Origin: a virus
Lineage: Duplodnaviria; Caudoviricetes
DNA length: 40,550 bases
Virus record (IMG/VR): IMGVR_UViG_3300037524_001137
Coordinates: 1 to 40,550 of that record
Reading direction: 5' to 3' (one strand)
Notes under the pieces: model-generated
Database searches by the model: none
What the model saw: only the letters and a program-made list of their open reading frames with translations
What the model was told of the DNA's origin: nothing
Shown: positions 30,125-40,550 of the stretch, piece by piece
Layout: each line of letters starts with the position of its first letter
Position numbering within the stretch: the stretch's first letter is position 1
Position numbers and translations under genes: made by a program

Positions 30125-30334
30125 ATGATTGATCAAAGCACTCTGAACTACGATTTGCCGCTGCCACATCCTGGAAATCTGCTGCAGGATGATGTGTTGC
30201 GGTTACGTTCCGCATTGACCGGCATTGATCTGGTCTTAAACGTTTTAAACCAAAAAAGCATCACCGTTGATCTGCCGTTTATCACCGCCGCAGGTGCCGC
30301 CAAGCCGATCAGGATGACCATCAATGCCGGATAA
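30125..30334 (+). CDS. Short tail-fibre adaptor
   Basis: LPLPHPGNLLQDDVLRLRSAL..ID resembles a typical fibre N-terminal anchor. Confidence 0.6.
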   Translation: MIDQSTLNYDLPLPHPGNLLQDDVLRLRSALTGIDLVLNVLNQKSITVDLPFITAAGAAKPIRMTINAG

Positions 30335-31400
30335 AATCCCCCTCAAGGCCCTCTATACCGGCAATCAGCCCACCGCGCTAGGTGAATTTAACGACGGTGA
30401 CACCCTGCCGATCAGTCATGGGGGCACCGGCAAAACCACGGCGGAGGAGGCCCGCGCCAATCTGGGTCTGACCCTTGGTAGCCAGGTGCAGGCGTATGAT
30501 GCCGACCTGGCGGCTTTGGCTGGCCTGTCCGGCACCGGCCTCATCGAGCGCACGGGCGCTGGGACGGCGGGTACCGTCACCGTGACGGTAGCGGGCAAAG
30601 CGATCCTCGATGATGCCGACGCGGCGACCCAACGCACGACGCTGGGGTTAAAGGGGGCCGCGACGCTGGATGTCGGCACGGCAGCGGACACGGTGGCCGC
30701 CGGCAATCACACCCACCCGGGGGTCTACGAGCCGGCGGATGCGACGATTCTCAAGAGCGCCGCGATTGGTTCGACTGTCCAAGGTTACGACGCTGATCTG
30801 GCAGCGGTGGCCGGGCTATCTACCACCGGCCTCATCGAGCGCACGGGCGCTGGGACGGCGGGTACCGTCACCGTGACGGTAGCGGGCAAAGCGATCCTCG
30901 ATGATGCCGACGCGGCGACCCAACGCACGACGCTGGGGGTGGGCACGGGGGACAGCCCGCAGTTCGCCGAGGTCAATCTGGGGCATGCCTCCGACACCAC
31001 CCTGGCCCGCAGTGCCGCCGGCCAGGTGACGATTGAGGGCGTGGCGATTACCACCGCGTCAAACTCTCAAGCCCTGAGCAACAAGGAGTTAACTGGCACC
31101 CAGGAGACGGTGCATAGCATCGTGGATGGCGCCACCGTGGACATTAACCCGGCCCAGGGCGGCATTCAGACCTGGACCCTGGGCGCAAACCGCACGCCGA
31201 CCGCGACCAATTTCGCGGCGGGGCAATCGGTGATGCTGATGATTAACGACGGCACGGCCTATGCCGTGAACTGGACGGGCATCGGTGTCGTCTGGGTCGG
31301 CGGGACAGAACCGACCCTACCCACCAGTGGCTATGGCATCATCGAACTTTGGAAAGTCGGCGCTACGGTCTATGGCGCGAGCGTGGGGAACGTGGCCTGA
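30324..31400 (+). CDS. Tail fibre protein
   Basis: LPISHGGTGKTTAEEARANLGL and duplicated LDDADAATQRTTLG shaft motifs. Confidence 0.8.
   Translation: MPDKIPLKALYTGNQPTALGEFNDGDTLPISHGGTGKTTAEEARANLGLTLGSQVQAYDADLAALAGLSGTGLIERTGAGTAGTVTVTVAGKAILDDADAATQRTTLGLKGAATLDVGTAADTVAAGNHTHPGVYEPADATILKSAAIGSTVQGYDADLAAVAGLSTTGLIERTGAGTAGTVTVTVAGKAILDDADAATQRTTLGVGTGDSPQFAEVNLGHASDTTLARSAAGQVTIEGVAITTASNSQALSNKELTGTQETVHSIVDGATVDINPAQGGIQTWTLGANRTPTATNFAAGQSVMLMINDGTAYAVNWTGIGVVWVGGTEPTLPTSGYGIIELWKVGATVYGASVGNVA
30533..30938 (+). repeat. Perfect 115-bp direct repeat (30533-30647 / 30824-30938)
   Basis: Identical copies 291 bp (97 codons) apart, in frame; each contains TACCGTCAC-C-GTGACGGTA. Confidence 0.9.
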
Positions 31401-32026
31401 TGCTGCACCATGCCCTCCGCGCCATGACCAAAGCCGTGGTATATTTCGTGACCACCGCAGGCAGCGGGTCTTATCTCGCGCCGACTTGGGCCACCAAGGT
31501 CACGGTCGAGGCCATTGGCGGCGGCGGCAAGGGCAATGGCAATAGTCAAGAATCGCGGCGCTCCGGAGGTGGCGGTGGGGCTTATGCGCAAACCACGAAC
31601 TTGACCGTCACCGGCGGCAGCACGCGGGTGTATTTTTATGTCGGACAGACCATCGAAGATAGCTGGGTGCGTCTGAACTCCAACGCCGCTCCGACTAGCA
31701 CCTTGCATGGCTGCAAGGCCGAGGCCGGTAGATCCGGCAATGACTCTAACGGTGGAGCGGGTGGCGCCGATACGGCATCTGTGGGTACCCTGAAGTACGG
31801 CGGGGCGGACGGTTCCATCGGTGCCAGTGCCGTTGGGGGTGGCGCAGCAGGCGATGGTGGCGCGGCTGCGGATCAATCCGGCGGGGCTGCTATCACTATG
31901 CCCGGCGGGGATGGCGGCAATTTTGAAAGCGTGGGTCTGGTTCCAGGCGGGGGCGGGGGCGGTAGCGCGACACTTAACAATAAACTTGCGGGGGCAGTGG
32001 GCTGCGTGCGCATCACCTTTTACTAG
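31400..32026 (+). CDS. Glycine-rich tail fibre tip / receptor-binding protein
   Basis: VTVEAIGGGG.G...GGGGGAY...GAVGCVRITFY; TGATG-coupled to the fibre gene. Confidence 0.7.
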   Translation: MLHHALRAMTKAVVYFVTTAGSGSYLAPTWATKVTVEAIGGGGKGNGNSQESRRSGGGGGAYAQTTNLTVTGGSTRVYFYVGQTIEDSWVRLNSNAAPTSTLHGCKAEAGRSGNDSNGGAGGADTASVGTLKYGGADGSIGASAVGGGAAGDGGAAADQSGGAAITMPGGDGGNFESVGLVPGGGGGGSATLNNKLAGAVGCVRITFY

Positions 32027-32035
32027 CCCTGGGCC

Positions 32036-32199
32036 GTGACACTTGATAGCGTATCACGCCAGGCTGAAATAATTAGCTTATTTATCAGTTCGCTAGGGTC
32101 ATAATTCGCGCCCTTTCACGGCGACAACATGACCTTAAGTTGATGAAGCTGAAAGGAAATCGCCAAAACTGGTATATCCCCAGATATCCCGCCTATCAC
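32036..32199. other. Candidate attP
   Basis: Core CGCC-CTTTCAC-GGCG (32109-32123) resembles a tRNA-Glu anticodon arm. TATC(A/C)C boxes at 32052, 32175, 32185, 32194 and an IHF-like TATCAGTTCGCTA at 32083. Adjacent to the integrase. Confidence 0.6.
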
Positions 32200-32202
32200 A
32201 CT

Positions 32203-32279
32203 GTCCCGTTCGTCTAGTGGCCTAGGACACTGGCCTTTCACGCCAGTAACAGGGGTTCGATATCCCCTACGGGACGCCA
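32203..32279 (+). tRNA. tRNA-Glu(TTC) with 8-nt T-loop
   Basis: Acceptor GTCCCGT/ACGGGAC, G discriminator, encoded CCA; anticodon arm CTGGC-CTTTCAC-GCCAG; T arm AGGGG-TTCGATAT-CCCCT. Confidence 0.9.
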
Positions 32280-32290
32280 CTTTCGTTTCA

Positions 32291-33307
32291 TCACAACCGC
32301 AACCCGACGATCGCATCCCGCAAGGATGATGGTGCCAGGTGGGCGTATTTCTCCGTGATGCGGATGCTGGAATGCCCGGCCAGGACCTGCACGGTGCGTA
32401 GGGGGATGCCGGCCTGGACGAGTTGGGAGCAAAAGGTGTGGCGAAGGGCATGCACCGATCCGGTCAGTTCCGCCCGGCCCAGGGTGCGGCTAAAGGCCCG
32501 GGTCAATGAATAAGGGGTAACCTGGGGAAGGACAAATTCTCGCGGACGGCGGAGGGATTCGATTGCCTCGGCGGCCCCCTGGGTGATGGGGACGACGCGC
32601 CACTTGCCTGACTTGGTACGGGCGCCGGGTTCGGAGACGATGCGCAGTTCATCCTGGCCGATGTCGGCCCACTTAAGTTGAATGGCCTCGCCGCGGCGCA
32701 TACCGGAGTTCACCATCAACTGCCAGGACCAGCGGTACTGGCGATGTAGTTCCGCGTCTTCCGTGGTGGCCTCTTTCGGGATCGTCAGTTCCGTGGCGTA
32801 GATCAGGCCAAGCTCCTCTTTGGTGTACCACCGGGGCGGGCGGCTGGCCAGGTCCCGGGGTGCCTTGGCGTACTGAACGGGATTGTGGGTTATCACGCCC
32901 GTCTCGACAGCGTGATTCAGTAGGGCCTTGAGGGTCCGAATCTCCTTGATGATCGTCCCGGCAGCGGCGCCGTCCGTGAAGCGTTGGCGCTTGTAATCAT
33001 CCACCAGGTCGATGGTCAGGGCGAGCAAGGGGCGGCGCTTGAAATAGGGAATCAGGTGCTGGCGGAGGATCTGTTCCACCCGGTAATAGCTGTCGGGGTA
33101 TTCCTGGCTGTGCCACTGGCCATAGGTGACGGCATAGGTCAGGAACTGCGGGCCGGCGAGGGCGGCATGGCCGCGGGCCTGTTCCCGTGCGACCCGGGCC
33201 GCCTCGGCTTCGGCTTCGGTAACTGGGCCAAGACGCTGGCGGATCTGCCGCCTGCCCTCGACCCAGGTGATGTACCACGTCTGACCGCGGAGATATTTTC
33301 CTGCCAT
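32291..33307 (-). CDS. int: Tyrosine integrase
   Basis: SGMRRGE (R), TKSGK (K), HALRH, LAGH, TEKYAH (Y). Confidence 0.95.
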   Translation of the reverse strand: MAGKYLRGQTWYITWVEGRRQIRQRLGPVTEAEAEAARVAREQARGHAALAGPQFLTYAVTYGQWHSQEYPDSYYRVEQILRQHLIPYFKRRPLLALTIDLVDDYKRQRFTDGAAAGTIIKEIRTLKALLNHAVETGVITHNPVQYAKAPRDLASRPPRWYTKEELGLIYATELTIPKEATTEDAELHRQYRWSWQLMVNSGMRRGEAIQLKWADIGQDELRIVSEPGARTKSGKWRVVPITQGAAEAIESLRRPREFVLPQVTPYSLTRAFSRTLGRAELTGSVHALRHTFCSQLVQAGIPLRTVQVLAGHSSIRITEKYAHLAPSSLRDAIVGLRL

Positions 33308-33465
33308 GCCTGATCCATGCTCGCCTCGATGTCTGCACGTCGATACAGGATGGCACCCATCCAGGCCAAGGGCAAGATCCCCATCCCTGGGGCGCGGGCG
33401 GCAAACTCCTCCTCAGGGAGGTTGGCCAGGTTGGCAGCCTCGGAAAGAGTGAGGTATGGAGTCAT
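33139..33465 (-). CDS. Excisionase-like HTH protein overlapping the int start
   Basis: YLTLSEAA...ILYRRADIE winged-HTH pattern immediately upstream of int. Confidence 0.65.
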   Translation of the reverse strand: MTPYLTLSEAANLANLPEEEFAARAPGMGILPLAWMGAILYRRADIEASMDQAWQENISAVRRGTSPGSRAGGRSASVLAQLPKPKPRRPGSHGNRPAAMPPSPARSS

Positions 33466-33469
33466 GGGG

Positions 33470-33652
33470 TCACGCAAGAATTTCCGTGGGGATGCGGTAT
33501 TCGCACCGTTTCATCAAGTAGTCACGCATCGTCTGGGCCGTTGGTGGGTACTTGCCCGATCGGGATTGATCACGCTCGGTCCAGCGCCGGCAGGTTTGCT
33601 TCCAGGGACAACTCTCGTCACCGCAGCGGGTGATGTCGTCAGCGAGGATCAT
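33470..33652 (-). CDS. Small Cys-rich protein
   Basis: DITRC...CPWKQTCRRW...CEY; ATGA coupling to the upstream gene. Confidence 0.65.
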   Translation of the reverse strand: MILADDITRCGDESCPWKQTCRRWTERDQSRSGKYPPTAQTMRDYLMKRCEYRIPTEILA

Positions 33653-34278: not shown

Positions 34279-34757
34279 TCGCCCATAGCCCTCTGTAAAG
34301 CACCTACTGCGTCAGCAAGCAGCCGATCACGCCATCCACGCTTCGTATATCGCGGCTCGTGCTTAACATGATTTGCCGTGCCCCTTTCAATCATGCCGTT
34401 TGGTGGCGCATACAGCGAACAGCCTAGCTGCCACCAGCGTTGGTCCCAGTCAATGACAGCATAGCAACCTTTGTACTCCAGCTCCTCGATCAATCTCCCG
34501 CCCCTGTAACTGTGCTTTGAATGCTTCATGCCATCAGGCAGGCTAACCAAGTGTGTTAATCTCGCTGTCATTTCATCTCCTTCATCGTAGCCTTGCCTTA
34601 ACAACGGGCAGTCATTGACGAAGCATCCGTATTTGTTACTGGGGTGGTAGCACTCTATCTCGGTTGGGCTTTTGTAGTCGCAGTGTTCGGACAGGCGATT
34701 GAACGCATGAAGCACGTACTCAATGCGCATGTGGAAATCGTCGGGGTGCTCTTTCAT
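34275..34757 (-). CDS. Hypothetical protein with internal RBS/start at 34571
   Basis: ATGA-coupled to nrdB; internal AAGGAGATGAA-ATG in frame. Confidence 0.55.
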   Translation of the reverse strand: MKEHPDDFHMRIEYVLHAFNRLSEHCDYKSPTEIECYHPSNKYGCFVNDCPLLRQGYDEGDEMTARLTHLVSLPDGMKHSKHSYRGGRLIEELEYKGCYAVIDWDQRWWQLGCSLYAPPNGMIERGTANHVKHEPRYTKRGWRDRLLADAVGALQRAMGE

Positions 34758-35827
34758 TTCATGCCTTCCAGCGGGTCGGCCCAATCGTGTTCTTGTGCGT
34801 CAAAATTAGAAAACAAATCACTGGCAAGCTGATACTCTGAAACCCTGCGCTCAAAAAAATTGGTTTCTCGATGAAGCTCTACTGTTTCTGAAACCCATGG
34901 CAAAGTCGGTTCCGCTTGTGCAAAATCAGGATGTTCAAGTTGCAACCGGCGAAGGTTGACTCTCATTAGGTGCTTGCAGTGTTCGATGTAGGCATCAGCA
35001 CTCAGGCCGGGCAAATCAATGTATGTATGCCGGGCAAATTCTTCTTCTAGTTTAATGCCGCGAGTGGCGATACTAAAAATTCCTTCAGTGACATAAGATA
35101 AGTCTAGCTGTGGATTTTCTTTAATGATGTCGGCAATCACGGTCAAGCCTACGGAAAAATGAAGCTGCTCGTCACGCCTGATGTATTGGAACTGGTCACC
35201 AGTTCCAAGCATTGTGCGGTGGAACCGACTAGGGTAAGTCCCCGCCGAAAGGCCCATGTAAAACCAGTTACCCTCTAGCACCAAAGCAAAGAAGACATAA
35301 GCCAGGATAAATTTTTCCAACTCGCCTGGCTTGCTGATGTCGTCTATCTCATCCAACCATCGGGCATATTTAGCCGCCTCCGCTATCTTGGCGTATAGGG
35401 TTTCTTCTTGAAGATAGCGGCCAAACACCTCGTCCGGGTTAAGCCCGATCTCATCCGCCAGCAAGGTATAGGTGTCGGTATGGATGGCTTCTTGCTGGCC
35501 TTGCAGGGCCAGCCATTGCCGCAATTCCGGGGCCGTGGCGTGGCGCATGATGGATACGTCGATGGCTTCCGTCACTACCATATCCATGGTTGTCAGCATC
35601 GAAAACAGCCAGTCGTATTGATGGCGAACATTGGACGGCAGTTCACGATATTCCAGCTTGTCCTTTCCGACTCCAATCTCTTCAGGAAGCCAAAAATTCA
35701 GCCGCGCTTTTTTATAAATGGCATAGAGCCATTTATATTTTAACGGTAACAAGGCTTGTGTAGCCGGTCCACCAACTAGGCGGCGATCATTGATAGACGT
35801 TATTTGCTTAAACTCAGGTACGTGCAT
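34754..35827 (-). CDS. nrdB: Ribonucleotide reductase class I beta (R2) subunit
   Basis: FWLPEEI, D ligand (TTMD), EAIH..TY (radical Tyr), LEG, RDEQLH, C-terminal NFFERRVSEYQ. Confidence 0.9.
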   Translation of the reverse strand: MHVPEFKQITSINDRRLVGGPATQALLPLKYKWLYAIYKKARLNFWLPEEIGVGKDKLEYRELPSNVRHQYDWLFSMLTTMDMVVTEAIDVSIMRHATAPELRQWLALQGQQEAIHTDTYTLLADEIGLNPDEVFGRYLQEETLYAKIAEAAKYARWLDEIDDISKPGELEKFILAYVFFALVLEGNWFYMGLSAGTYPSRFHRTMLGTGDQFQYIRRDEQLHFSVGLTVIADIIKENPQLDLSYVTEGIFSIATRGIKLEEEFARHTYIDLPGLSADAYIEHCKHLMRVNLRRLQLEHPDFAQAEPTLPWVSETVELHRETNFFERRVSEYQLASDLFSNFDAQEHDWADPLEGMK

Positions 35828-35887
35828 GGGTAAGACCTTTAGGCGAAGGATTCGAGCTGGTAAGAGTCGCAAGGGCCGAGTAGGGGT

Positions 35888-37621: not shown

Positions 37622-37849
37622 TTAAAACGGGATTAACGGTATCCACCGATCACAGCCAACCCGTTGCACATGGACCGGCACGTTATCACCCCATTGATCG
37701 CACCATTGATCAGAGGATTTGTAGCGATCACATAGATCACAGCTACGTCGCGTAGGGAGGACTTCAATCAGGGTGATGATGGTGCGCAACAGGTTTAGTA
37801 GCTCCTCTTTCTTGTCTGGGGTGAATTGGATGAATGGGTTAGAACTCAT
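37622..37849 (-). CDS. Small Cys-rich protein
   Basis: CDLC...C..W...VP......GCDRW..IPF, downstream of the helicase. Confidence 0.65.
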   Translation of the reverse strand: MSSNPFIQFTPDKKEELLNLLRTIITLIEVLPTRRSCDLCDRYKSSDQWCDQWGDNVPVHVQRVGCDRWIPLIPF

Positions 37850-39440
37850 AACCTGTTACCTCGGGATATTTCTTGCTCATATCGACATGGACAACCTTTG
37901 GGTTCCTCAATTTGTCGGTGTATTCGAGTGCCGCGGCAATGGTGATAGGGACGACTGTCCCGGGTGCCCGTTGCGCCCACCAGGTAACGGCTTTGGTGCG
38001 GGCATAGCCGCCAGGGTGTTCTAGGCAGATCCATTCGCTGGCGATGCGGAGGAATGGACCACGATAGGTCACGCGCAAGGTATCGGGTCCGCCATATTTC
38101 CCGGGCCAGCGTTGATACTCCACCGCATGCACGTTATGCCGTTCGATGCGTGGCCCGGTATCACTGCTCAGGATCGGCAGGTCGCAGGCGCTGGCGGCGT
38201 GCTTGGGAGTCAGGTCCACCGGAAACTCATGGCCGCACTCGGGGCAGGTGCGCACGGCGATGGCGAGGATGGTCTGGCAGTCGGGACAGGTGCGGGTCGG
38301 GGCCGCCTGGGGGCCGGGCTGCTTGGCGGAGGGCACCCAGGCTTTGACCTGATCGACCGGCCCATGGCGCAGGGTGTTGCCGGCAAAATCCAGCACCAAA
38401 CAATCGGTCTTGCCCGGCGCCCGGCGGGAACCGCGGCCCACTTGCTGCACGAAAAGCCCGGGCGATTGGGTTGGCCTGAGCATCACCAGCAGGTCGGTGT
38501 CGGGTACGTCAAAACCCGTAGTCAAGACATTGGCATTGGTGAGGGCGCGTAACCGCCCGGTCTTGAAGTCGTTGATTAGGGCGTCGCGTTCTGCCAGTGG
38601 AGTCTTTCCTGTAACACAACCGGCGCTGATGCCGCGTTCCCGTAGAGCGGCGGCGATATGCTGGGCATGGTCTACCCCGGCACAAAACACCAGCCATTTC
38701 TTGCGCTCCCGGCCCAGGTCCAGGGTTTCATCCAGGGCGGCTTGCGTGACTTCCTCCCGGTCCACCGCTGCCTCCAGTTGCTTGGCGACAAATTCACCCT
38801 GACGGATGGCGACCCCGGAGACATCCAGTTGCGTGGCCATGCGCTTGCTGATCAGGGGCGACAGGTAGCCGTCACGGATCAGGTCCAACATGTTGACTTC
38901 GTGGGCGACGGCATTGAATAGGGCCTCATCACCATGGCACAGACTACCGGAGGCAGTACGCCAGGGGGTAGCGGTTAGGCCGACTACTCGCAGGGCAGGA
39001 TTGATCTTGGTGGCCTCGTCCAGGAAGGCGCGATAGATCCCGACGGACTTGTTTGACACAAGATGCACCTCGTCAATGAGGATCAGGTCGAATCGCCCCA
39101 GGTGCCAGGCTTTGTTATGCACCGACTGAATGCCAGCGAAGATCACCGGCTCGAAGGTGGCGCGGGATTTCAGGCCCGCGGAGTGAATGCCAAGCGGTGC
39201 CCTGGGCCAGACGGTCAGGAGCTTGTCAGCATTCTGGCGGATCAGTTCACGGACATGCGTCAGCATTAGAATCCGGGTGCCTGGCCATTGCTGCAAGGAT
39301 TCCTGCACCAGTAGGGCCAGGATAACGGCCTTGCCGGCGCCGGTAGGCAGGACCAGCAGGGGATTACCGGCTGGGTTGGCATTGAACCAGGCGTAAAGGG
39401 CGTCGATGCTCTCACGCTGATAGGGGCGGGGTTGGATCAT
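37839..39440 (-). CDS. SF2 DEAD/DEAH helicase (RadD/YejH-like) with Zn finger
   Basis: PRPYQ, PTGAGK, DEVH, GLTATP, TTGFDVP, QQVGRGSR, CPDC..CPECG. Confidence 0.92.
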   Translation of the reverse strand: MIQPRPYQRESIDALYAWFNANPAGNPLLVLPTGAGKAVILALLVQESLQQWPGTRILMLTHVRELIRQNADKLLTVWPRAPLGIHSAGLKSRATFEPVIFAGIQSVHNKAWHLGRFDLILIDEVHLVSNKSVGIYRAFLDEATKINPALRVVGLTATPWRTASGSLCHGDEALFNAVAHEVNMLDLIRDGYLSPLISKRMATQLDVSGVAIRQGEFVAKQLEAAVDREEVTQAALDETLDLGRERKKWLVFCAGVDHAQHIAAALRERGISAGCVTGKTPLAERDALINDFKTGRLRALTNANVLTTGFDVPDTDLLVMLRPTQSPGLFVQQVGRGSRRAPGKTDCLVLDFAGNTLRHGPVDQVKAWVPSAKQPGPQAAPTRTCPDCQTILAIAVRTCPECGHEFPVDLTPKHAASACDLPILSSDTGPRIERHNVHAVEYQRWPGKYGGPDTLRVTYRGPFLRIASEWICLEHPGGYARTKAVTWWAQRAPGTVVPITIAAALEYTDKLRNPKVVHVDMSKKYPEVTGYEF

Positions 39441-39631
39441 TCCGCCTTTTCTCCTTCGTCATGCGCCAGTTCAGCAAAGCCGGGGTGCTGGGAACAGGTG
39501 TGGTAGGCGCTGACATAACGACGCACGTCGATACTGTCCGGGCAGCGACACAGGCCCTCGGGCTGACCGCGATAGCGCACCGTGGCCAGGTCCCAATGGG
39601 GGCAGGAATCGCAGTTGATACGTTGGGTCAT
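39437..39631 (-). CDS. Small Cys-rich protein
   Basis: CDSCPHW...GLC...TC; ATGA-coupled on both sides. Confidence 0.6.
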   Translation of the reverse strand: MTQRINCDSCPHWDLATVRYRGQPEGLCRCPDSIDVRRYVSAYHTCSQHPGFAELAHDEGEKAE

Positions 39632-40550
39632 GGGGCTAGGCTCGCGTCAAATGCCTTCTGAATCTGTCCAGCGACCGGATCAGCAAACAGGGCTGGGTTG
39701 GTGGCAATCTGGGTGCTGTGCCAGCCACCAGGTCCATTGATGAATTGATGCTCTTGAAATTCGCCTTGGTAAATGATGCTTCCGGCAACCTCATCGGCGT
39801 CAACGGCTACCCAGGGCAACAGGGCAGGAATGAAGACATGCTGCACGCATTCAGCGCCTCGGCGTTGTACATCTGCCGGCAGATCGGTGGCATAACGGGC
39901 GCAGGACCAGCGACCATCACCATCCAGTTCAGGGGTAGCATGGGCGCAGGTGCGACAATTGACTTGCGGGACACGGGGGCCAGTGGTCTGATGGCACAAG
40001 TCGCGGTGGTTGCACCACTGGCACTGATACCAGTCTGGCCGATCACTGATCCTGGCCGGAGGTTCAGGAGAGGTGATGATGCGGTGCGCCTTGGCCAGCA
40101 GGGTCTCGGCGGTTGCCGAGTCGGCGTGGGTGCGCACCGAAACGGTATGGCGTCCGCCCGGAGTGGCGCAGGTCAGATAATGACGGGAGAGATTCAGGAG
40201 GTGCATATAGATAATGGCCTGGGCGTGATAGACCGCATCCCAGGCGGCCAGAGCGCCCTGCTCGCCATGCTCTTGTTTGGCCTTGATCAAGGCCGCCTGT
40301 TTCTTCTCGTCGGTCTGCTTATGCTCCCAGACGTGCCAGGTGGCAGGCGCTTGCAGCAACCCGTGGATGACACCATCCGCATGACCGCGCAGGTGACCAC
40401 CCACGGCCTGACAAGCGAACTGCTCGCCGGTGCGGGGGTCGACGGTATGTAGTTCGATCACTGACACCAGGCGGAGCCGTTCCGCCTGTAGGGCTTCGCC
40501 ACGGTGCCCGTCCTCGAATCGCTTGAGAGTCACCGCGTCCCAGGCCGGGG
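39628..40550 (-). CDS. PD-(D/E)XK exonuclease (Cas4-like phage nuclease), 5'-truncated
   Basis: GHADG...WEHK...AQAIIYM...CQWC.HRDLC...CRTC; reading frame runs off the window. Confidence 0.8.
   Translation of the reverse strand, partial: PAWDAVTLKRFEDGHRGEALQAERLRLVSVIELHTVDPRTGEQFACQAVGGHLRGHADGVIHGLLQAPATWHVWEHKQTDEKKQAALIKAKQEHGEQGALAAWDAVYHAQAIIYMHLLNLSRHYLTCATPGGRHTVSVRTHADSATAETLLAKAHRIITSPEPPARISDRPDWYQCQWCNHRDLCHQTTGPRVPQVNCRTCAHATPELDGDGRWSCARYATDLPADVQRRGAECVQHVFIPALLPWVAVDADEVAGSIIYQGEFQEHQFINGPGGWHSTQIATNPALFADPVAGQIQKAFDASLAP

Follow-up and report, generated by a model that had tools for sequence, protein, structure and literature searches.

A lone tRNA-Glu anticodon arm and a spare tRNA-Glu gene in a tailed phage: a predicted case of tRNA-dependent lysogeny with a likely gammaproteobacterial host

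Introduction

In tRNA-dependent lysogeny, a prophage splits a host tRNA gene without rebuilding it and supplies a replacement. This mode was defined, and proven in mycobacteriophages, by Guerrero-Bustamante and Hatfull in 2024 (PMC10865867); their study describes the actinobacteriophage cases Fionnbharth K4, Cluster L, Cain, Gaia and Mollymur, and leaves open how the mode originated from ordinary tRNA-restoring integration. They also cite prophage Lj965 of Lactobacillus johnsonii, a Firmicute host unlike that considered here, in which there is a cognate tRNA and no tRNA reconstruction. A proteobacterial parallel is provided by the Lo5R7ANS-like prophages of Sinorhizobium meliloti AK21 and RU11/001, in which, according to PMC11476347, tRNA-Leu(UAG) is disrupted centrally and replaced; PMC12429752 and PMC13015707 restate this replacement. 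For ordinary integration, the anticodon-centred crossover subsite is termed site A in the Islander study (PMC4383910).

Here we describe a locus in a tailed-phage record of 40,550 bases, which was analysed as a whole and is referred to below as the window. By the account of PMC10865867, the locus shares with the actinobacteriophages a tyrosine integrase, a core at the anticodon loop (8-17 bp there, 20 bp in the window), arm-type sites on both sides, a phage tRNA of the host's isotype that is unlike the host's own, and close relatives that restore the tRNA. It differs from them in isotype (Lys, Ile2 and Leu there, tRNA-Glu(TTC) here), in its likely gammaproteobacterial host, and in being known from sequence. 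Furthermore, the spare tRNA gene of the window lies between the P' arm and the integrase gene (int), in the direction of the host gene and without a promoter-like match, unlike that of Fionnbharth, which shares sequence with a neighbouring gene and is driven by a strong promoter of its own, and the window's clade includes a relative with a decayed spare, a further difference from the actinobacteriophages as described there (PMC10865867). With the Lo5R7ANS-like prophages, the locus has in common a proteobacterial host (predicted in our case) and a same-isotype tRNA that is closer to those of other taxa; however, those prophages belong to Alphaproteobacteria and their integrated junctions have been seen, while none was seen here (PMC11476347). 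Compared with classical site-A integration, the crossover subsite is the same, but the window has no tRNA 3' fragment and the host gene would not be restored; the internal-fragment filter of Islander (PMC4383910) would likely reject an element of this type. Our literature search for a case involving tRNA-Glu, Chromatiaceae or a host promoter found none, and supplements may describe spares adjoining attP. The mechanism is already published as tRNA-dependent lysogeny, and the window contains a predicted, well supported case of it; what would be new are the tRNA-Glu isotype, the likely gammaproteobacterial host, a decayed-spare control and a possible dependence on the host promoter.

Results

The plus strand of the window carries tail sheath and baseplate genes and the minus strand carries replication genes (36 proteins scanned), and the two blocks meet at the predicted attP region, between the end of a glycine-rich open reading frame (ORF) at 32026 and int at 32291-33307 on the minus strand. 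Minus-strand genes for a ribonucleotide reductase small subunit, a helicase and a Cas4-like exonuclease are found at 34754-35872, 37839-39440 and 39628-40533, respectively. As no large ribonucleotide reductase subunit, repressor, terminase or capsid protein was recognised amongst the 36 proteins, the contig is probably incomplete. The ORF at 30324-31400 contains a long near-exact internal duplication of ~45 aa (approximately 30486-30620 and 30790-30925), a tail-fibre-like repeat. The genes left of attP in the relative L006 and in the metagenome-assembled genome (MAG) G247 are unrelated to those of the window.

The 338-aa product of int is a tyrosine integrase with PF00589 (E 1.5e-26) and PF13102 domains and a phrog_1 assignment, whose catalytic residues R204, K232, H286, R289, H312 and Y321 are conserved (113 of 120 listed homologues aligned). 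The gene converges on the spare tRNA gene, with its stop codon 11 bases from the tRNA end. Cultured phages have integrases only ~30% identical to it. A small minus-strand ORF at 33139-33477 overlaps the start of int and begins MTPYLTLSEAA, which we take to resemble the start of excisionases; the 57 aa tested gave no Pfam match.

An earlier, sequence-only reading of the region had pointed to an isolated Glu anticodon arm at 32109-32129, followed by neither T-arm nor acceptor, and to nearby arm-type boxes, an IHF-like site at 32083 and a full tRNA-Glu with a CTGGC/GCCAG stem. All of these elements are present at the positions it gave; it did not include the inverted box or the extra T-loop base described below. 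The final 28 bases of the tRNA are missing from the lone arm. The predicted attP common core spans 20 bp (32109-32128, plus strand), is identical to the tRNA-Glu(TTC) of the host genus identified below, and contains the anticodon loop CTTTCAC (32113-32119, plus strand), the predicted 7-bp crossover region. The mismatches behind the arm's 19/21 score against a typical gammaproteobacterial sequence do not represent decay, because GGCGACAAC is the host genus's own sequence (20/20). Homology runs from the anticodon stem-loop onward, as in classical site-A integration; it stops at 32128 and so does not continue through the tRNA 3' end in the manner of a classical attP. With only its last nine bases lying 3' of the loop, the core is too short to rebuild the tRNA.

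To the left of the core are an inverted arm-type box (32043-32048, minus strand; TTGATA on the plus strand), the left (P) arm-type box TATCAC (32052-32057, plus strand), which is a predicted integrase-binding site, and the IHF-like site (32083-32095, plus strand), one mismatch from the IHF consensus. In the closest relatives the inverted box, as GTGATA or GGGATA, keeps its position at -70 from the loop, and the direct box lies between -53 and -61 (-61, -58 or -53 in L006, L259, L173, L086 and L007); the IHF-like site is in the same place (-30) in L006 and L086. To the right is the P' arm or spacer, 74 nt at 32129-32202 on the plus strand, which ends in three tandem TATC(A/C)C boxes (TATCCC at 32175, TATCCC at 32185 and TATCAC at 32194; together 32175-32199, plus strand). 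This trio is the sole such cluster in the 40.5-kb window (~0.003 expected on a rough Poisson estimate) and is conserved in L006, L172, L173, L086, L007 and L167; L174 and L165 have two right boxes rather than three. Neither this cluster of boxes nor the exact match of the 20-mer to a host tRNA is attributable to chance. Our scan of the site for promoters and terminators returned no match. The boxes had been described as equidistant from the loop, which is true of the window, where the nearest box is 55 bases away on each side, but not of its relatives: the right trio starts at +56 in the window, +67/68 in L173, L086, L174 and L259 (the last by eye), and +90/92 in L172, L007 and L167. Given this variation the equidistance is a coincidence, and the predicted assignment of core and arms holds all the same. 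No comparable arrangement of boxes appears when the loop of the full tRNA is taken as the origin.

To place the lone arm amongst related sites, we collected loci from viral, genome and metagenome collections (the best 80 per alignment scan; loci from genome scans are those among the matches listed). At an integrase identity of at least 36%, 132 loci, including the window and L259, formed 106 clusters at 99%, among the matches listed, with 0.25-10 kb of flank covered per locus. Classical attP sites, comprising the tRNA-Glu anticodon loop and the whole 3' half without a 5' half, occur in 60/106 of these clusters, and a further 13/106 represent integrated elements that follow a complete host tRNA-Glu (attL), so that 73/106 clusters of the clade use the anticodon-centred subsite, all among the matches listed. 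In the same set, 5/106 combine a lone core with a whole tRNA-Glu under a rule that demands GCC/GG flanks, which weaker lone cores without a spare may escape and which leaves L238 ambiguous. The remaining 28/106 are siteless by the census rule, 12 of them incomplete, and seven of these 28 proved to have a 3' half in a subsequent profile search. The loop is invariant in 65/65 attP-type cores. G-3 and C-2, counted back from the loop and thus outside the 3' half, are invariant in 60/60 classical cores, whose selection was based on the 3' half rather than on these two positions; left of -4, similarity to the host fades in attP-type cores. This pattern indicates crossover at site A, with the window's arm in the place of the core. 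We therefore consider it highly probable that the lone arm is an attP core; the proposal that it is one whose 3' half was lost is backed by the 60 classical sites at the same place.

The five lone-core clusters are the window, L006 (98% integrase identity), L259 (91%), L174 (59%) and L015 (44%), and are partly related in that three of the five have integrases at least 91% identical. The core is the same in the window, L006 and L259, and the left flank matches that of the window at 41/45 positions in L006 and 24/45 in L259. In all five, an entire tRNA-Glu(TTC) gene whose anticodon stem is different lies between core and int and is oriented like the core, whereas a second tRNA-Glu-like match was found in 0/60 classical clusters within the flanks covered (Fisher p 1e-7, a value that kinship inflates). 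On a quick tree, built from 75 rows and leaving out the short L086, L096 and L243, the lone-core/classical label requires four changes, at least three of them forced by strong branches; clustering of the label on this tree is not significant (36/500 shuffles as low).

In the window, this predicted replacement is a complete tRNA-Glu(TTC) at 32203-32279 on the plus strand (ARAGORN; Rfam 56.8 bits; stem CTGGC/GCCAG). The spares score 51.7-58.8 bits, compared with 55.0 for the host gene, and their stems are kept by compensatory changes (99.3% of cells paired and 11 pairs changed on both sides; 7 sequences, 2 host genes). The window's spare has 14 differences from the host-genus tRNA and 7-8 from other bacterial or phage tRNA-Glu genes, and L006, with an identical core, has yet another anticodon stem. 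Its T-loop has 8 bases (32256-32263), a trait shared only with L006, confirmed by a contig from sequencing run X1, and one that might impair the spare, although the latter scores slightly above the host gene; in both phages the T-arm also forms a fourth TATCCC (32261-32266 in the window). G-2 is found in 5/5 spares and in no classical core. The altered stem had been suggested to keep the spare from becoming a target: the spare is a predicted non-target, by virtue of G-2, but other members of the host family have a CTGGC stem natively, which suggests that the spare was probably acquired from outside and retained as a non-target rather than altered in place. We also considered whether the native CTGGC tRNAs of 19 family genomes are themselves old replacements, and ruled this out as all lie in ordinary context.

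The likely host was sought amongst genomes of one order. The two closest genome integrases, among the matches listed, are in MAGs labelled Chromatiaceae, and a close integrase occurs in 4/380 order genomes, all four within one genus of 13 genomes. The core 20-mer is exact in 14/380 order genomes, 11 of which belong to this Chromatiaceae-labelled genus (11/13). The earlier proposal of a single-copy target agrees with these data: the 20-mer has one chromosomal site per genome in the 11/13, and none in two small genomes, on the understanding that these are MAGs of a predicted host from which a second tRNA-Glu copy could be missing. The additional sites in G001 and G247 belong to phage attP, and core matches lying close together in pairs, in G006 and G080, were set aside as tandem host tRNAs or unrelated repeats. 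The tRNA-Glu of the genus (e.g. L264:910-985) has an unpaired C-A atop the anticodon stem that is rare in the order (14/380), which makes the core a host marker. Across 275 family genomes (at least 90% complete), 235 match the 5'-half pattern, ~197 of them once (hand count). In 9/9 loci examined, the genus tRNA-Glu(TTC) sits behind tRNA-Ala(GGC); in G247 the pair is flanked by a promoter-like TGGACA-17-TAGTAT upstream and a terminator-like hairpin downstream. This MAG also encodes tRNA-Glu(CTC), an isoacceptor unable to read GAA. The target is thus likely to be an apparently single-copy tRNA-Glu(TTC) gene of a gammaproteobacterial host from the Chromatiaceae-labelled genus. The host range may exceed that genus, because L172, a classical attP type with a 90% identical integrase, occupies, as an integrated element, a tRNA-Lys/tRNA-Glu locus whose tRNA sequence differs.

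One integrated relative serves as a natural control. In L167 (G003:C69) the host tRNA is restored, with a spacer and terminator-like hairpin nearly the same as in classical L007, and behind the three boxes lies a full-length but decayed spare (L167:1628-1702; 0/300 shuffles as good; nhmmer E 8e-7) that gave no ARAGORN call and no Rfam tRNA match at E<=10. This single locus suggests that a spare decays where the host tRNA is restored and the spare is unneeded. The decayed spare is followed by a 214-aa ORF without a Pfam match and then by the integrase gene.

A search for integrated relatives and their junctions had been recommended. It yielded the 13 clade attL clusters in tRNA-Glu, which together with the 20/20 core identity are consistent with a predicted attB in the host tRNA, but no lone-core attL or attR was read in the viral, genome and metagenome collections or in six sequencing runs (X1-X6). 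Pattern searches of viral contigs (2, 6 and 9 loci) returned only attP forms, whole tRNAs and tandem host tRNAs, the 6-locus search giving two loci of the window's layout and four tandem tRNA-Glu arrays. A host 5' half joined to the P' arm was found in none of the matches listed from the X1-X6 contigs, which drop rare forms; a single contig spans the core without a break in X1 and X2. An X4 contig with a 21-base core match ~87 bases before a tRNA and a non-host left flank was not counted, its joint being too short. A second natural control is MAG G247, which has pieces of a related phage (66-82% DNA identity); its contig C570 ends exactly at the last base common to the phage core and the host tRNA of the same MAG, and overlaps the attP contig C382 by 99 bases, an overlap also seen at another contig pair. 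Reads from an attR, if present, would diverge at that base, where a fork between contigs would be expected. The host tRNA-Glu gene of G247 is, however, assembled intact, and a sister phage carrying a classical attP, of the kind exemplified by L172, could equally have produced the break.

Discussion

The arrangement described here is probably a case of tRNA-dependent lysogeny, in which the lone core would split the apparently single host tRNA-Glu(TTC) without rebuilding it and the spare 74 bases downstream would replace it; on this comparative evidence the lysogen, too, would probably depend on the spare. The predicted binding sites of the integrase are the TATC(A/C)C boxes together with the GCC/GGC arms of the stem, and the enzyme would exchange strands across the 7-bp loop CTTTCAC between the core and the host tRNA-Glu. 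It would leave the spare unused, because there a G replaces the C two bases before the loop. The resulting attL would read, in order, host promoter, tRNA-Ala, broken tRNA-Glu (48 of 76 bases), 74-base P' arm, spare and convergent int. The spare had been pictured just behind the host promoter; as the host gene is second in the tRNA-Ala(GGC)-tRNA-Glu pair, it would instead lie behind tRNA-Ala(GGC) and the broken 5' part of tRNA-Glu.

How the spare would be transcribed is the least certain step. Read-through from the host tRNA promoter is plausible given that the spacer has no promoter or terminator match and that a hairpin with a U-run is found in 0/4 lone-core spacers, compared with ~4/6 classical spacers and the host (folding, read by eye); whether expression actually depends on that promoter is close to an even call, leaning if anything against. 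A more elaborate version can be put forward only tentatively. The spare may be promoterless in the prophage and switched on through attL within the tRNA-Ala/tRNA-Glu transcript, after loss of the terminator that follows the 3' half in many classical relatives, and the cassette may flip between restoring and replacing modes by recombination in the P' arm; a regained 3' half with its terminator would then silence the spare and lead to decay, as in L167.

Amongst other explanations, the one that survives best, though unlikely, is that the core works and the host gene breaks but the spare is dispensable, owing to a second host tRNA-Glu(TTC) or to a use in translation during the lytic phase or in countering anticodon nucleases. 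Other phages have similar tRNA-Glu genes in multi-tRNA clusters, L015 has five additional tRNAs, six window genes show no preference between GAA and GAG (94 vs 96), and ~38/235 family genomes have at least two 5'-half matches (hand count; some are Glu-CTC). Within the genus itself, however, there is a single chromosomal copy in 11/13 genomes, and Glu(CTC) would leave GAA unread; moreover, a spare accompanies loss of the 3' half in 5/5 clusters vs 0/60 and is decayed in L167.

It is quite unlikely that the site is a decayed, non-working classical attP in a lytic or otherwise non-integrating phage, with the tRNA as unrelated cargo. Loss of the 3' half, the failure to see a junction and the lack of a recognised repressor amongst the 36 proteins would all fit, the last in a contig that is probably partial, but the core is unchanged in L006 and L259 despite the diverged left flank of L259, the box geometry is kept, the integrase is complete and retains its catalytic residues, and the contig break in G247 coincides with the end of the core.

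It is very unlikely that the phage uses the full tRNA's loop to enter a host whose stem is CTGGC, with ordinary restoration of the gene and the lone arm as a relic. The full tRNA does have the same loop and a whole 3' half, and family hosts with a native CTGGC stem exist, at 8 differences from the phage tRNA. Against this, the arm with three boxes is on the 5' side of the full tRNA, and 3' of the tRNA's loop there is just one TATCCC, in the T-arm, with 11 bases left before the int stop; the C-2 of 60/60 cores is missing from it; and its stem varies between near-identical phages in which the lone core is constant. That the arm is only the GC-rich discriminator or leader of a phage tRNA promoter (CATAAT at 32100) is most improbable, for although CATAAT-TCGCGCCC resembles a stable-RNA start and L259 has TATAAT further left, no promoter-like match was found at the site, the hexamer is not kept beside the core in L259 or L174, and the 20/20 identity to the host tRNA in the position of a classical core would be left without a cause; a lytic-phase promoter there is in any case compatible with an attP core.

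If tRNA-dependent lysogeny is the correct reading, a mode proven only in actinobacterial phages reaches a likely gammaproteobacterial host and tRNA-Glu, and a class of prophage is likely missed by island finders that rely on a tRNA end fragment. The 20-bp core would in turn give a host prediction. Because tRNA-Glu(UUC) serves tetrapyrrole synthesis as well, a foreign copy might have consequences in a host rich in pigments.

The order of events between the two modes can be studied in this clade, because it has both at 90% integrase identity, together with the trimmed core of L174 and the restored L167. The L174 core (L174:2094-2119) retains ~14 bases 3' of the loop, reaching the T-stem, before the match ends, and may represent an intermediate stage in the trimming of the 3' half. 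An HNH_3 endonuclease gene with a weak AP2 match lies between spare and int in L259 (2396-2842) and L174 (1482-1934), and may have brought the tRNA in. L015 (3489-4230) is probably an independent lone-core case: it has the core GCGCT-CTTTCAC-GGC, tandem GTCCC boxes on both sides, a 44% identical integrase and a tRNA-Glu with the loop TTTTCAG, 5 bases from int, with its five further tRNAs upstream. More distant integrases (33-37%; L042, L043, L065, L068, L072, L081, L083, L095, L097-L099 and L105) sit at tRNA-Arg(CCT), mostly in Xanthomonas, Stenotrophomonas and Dyella where the host is named.
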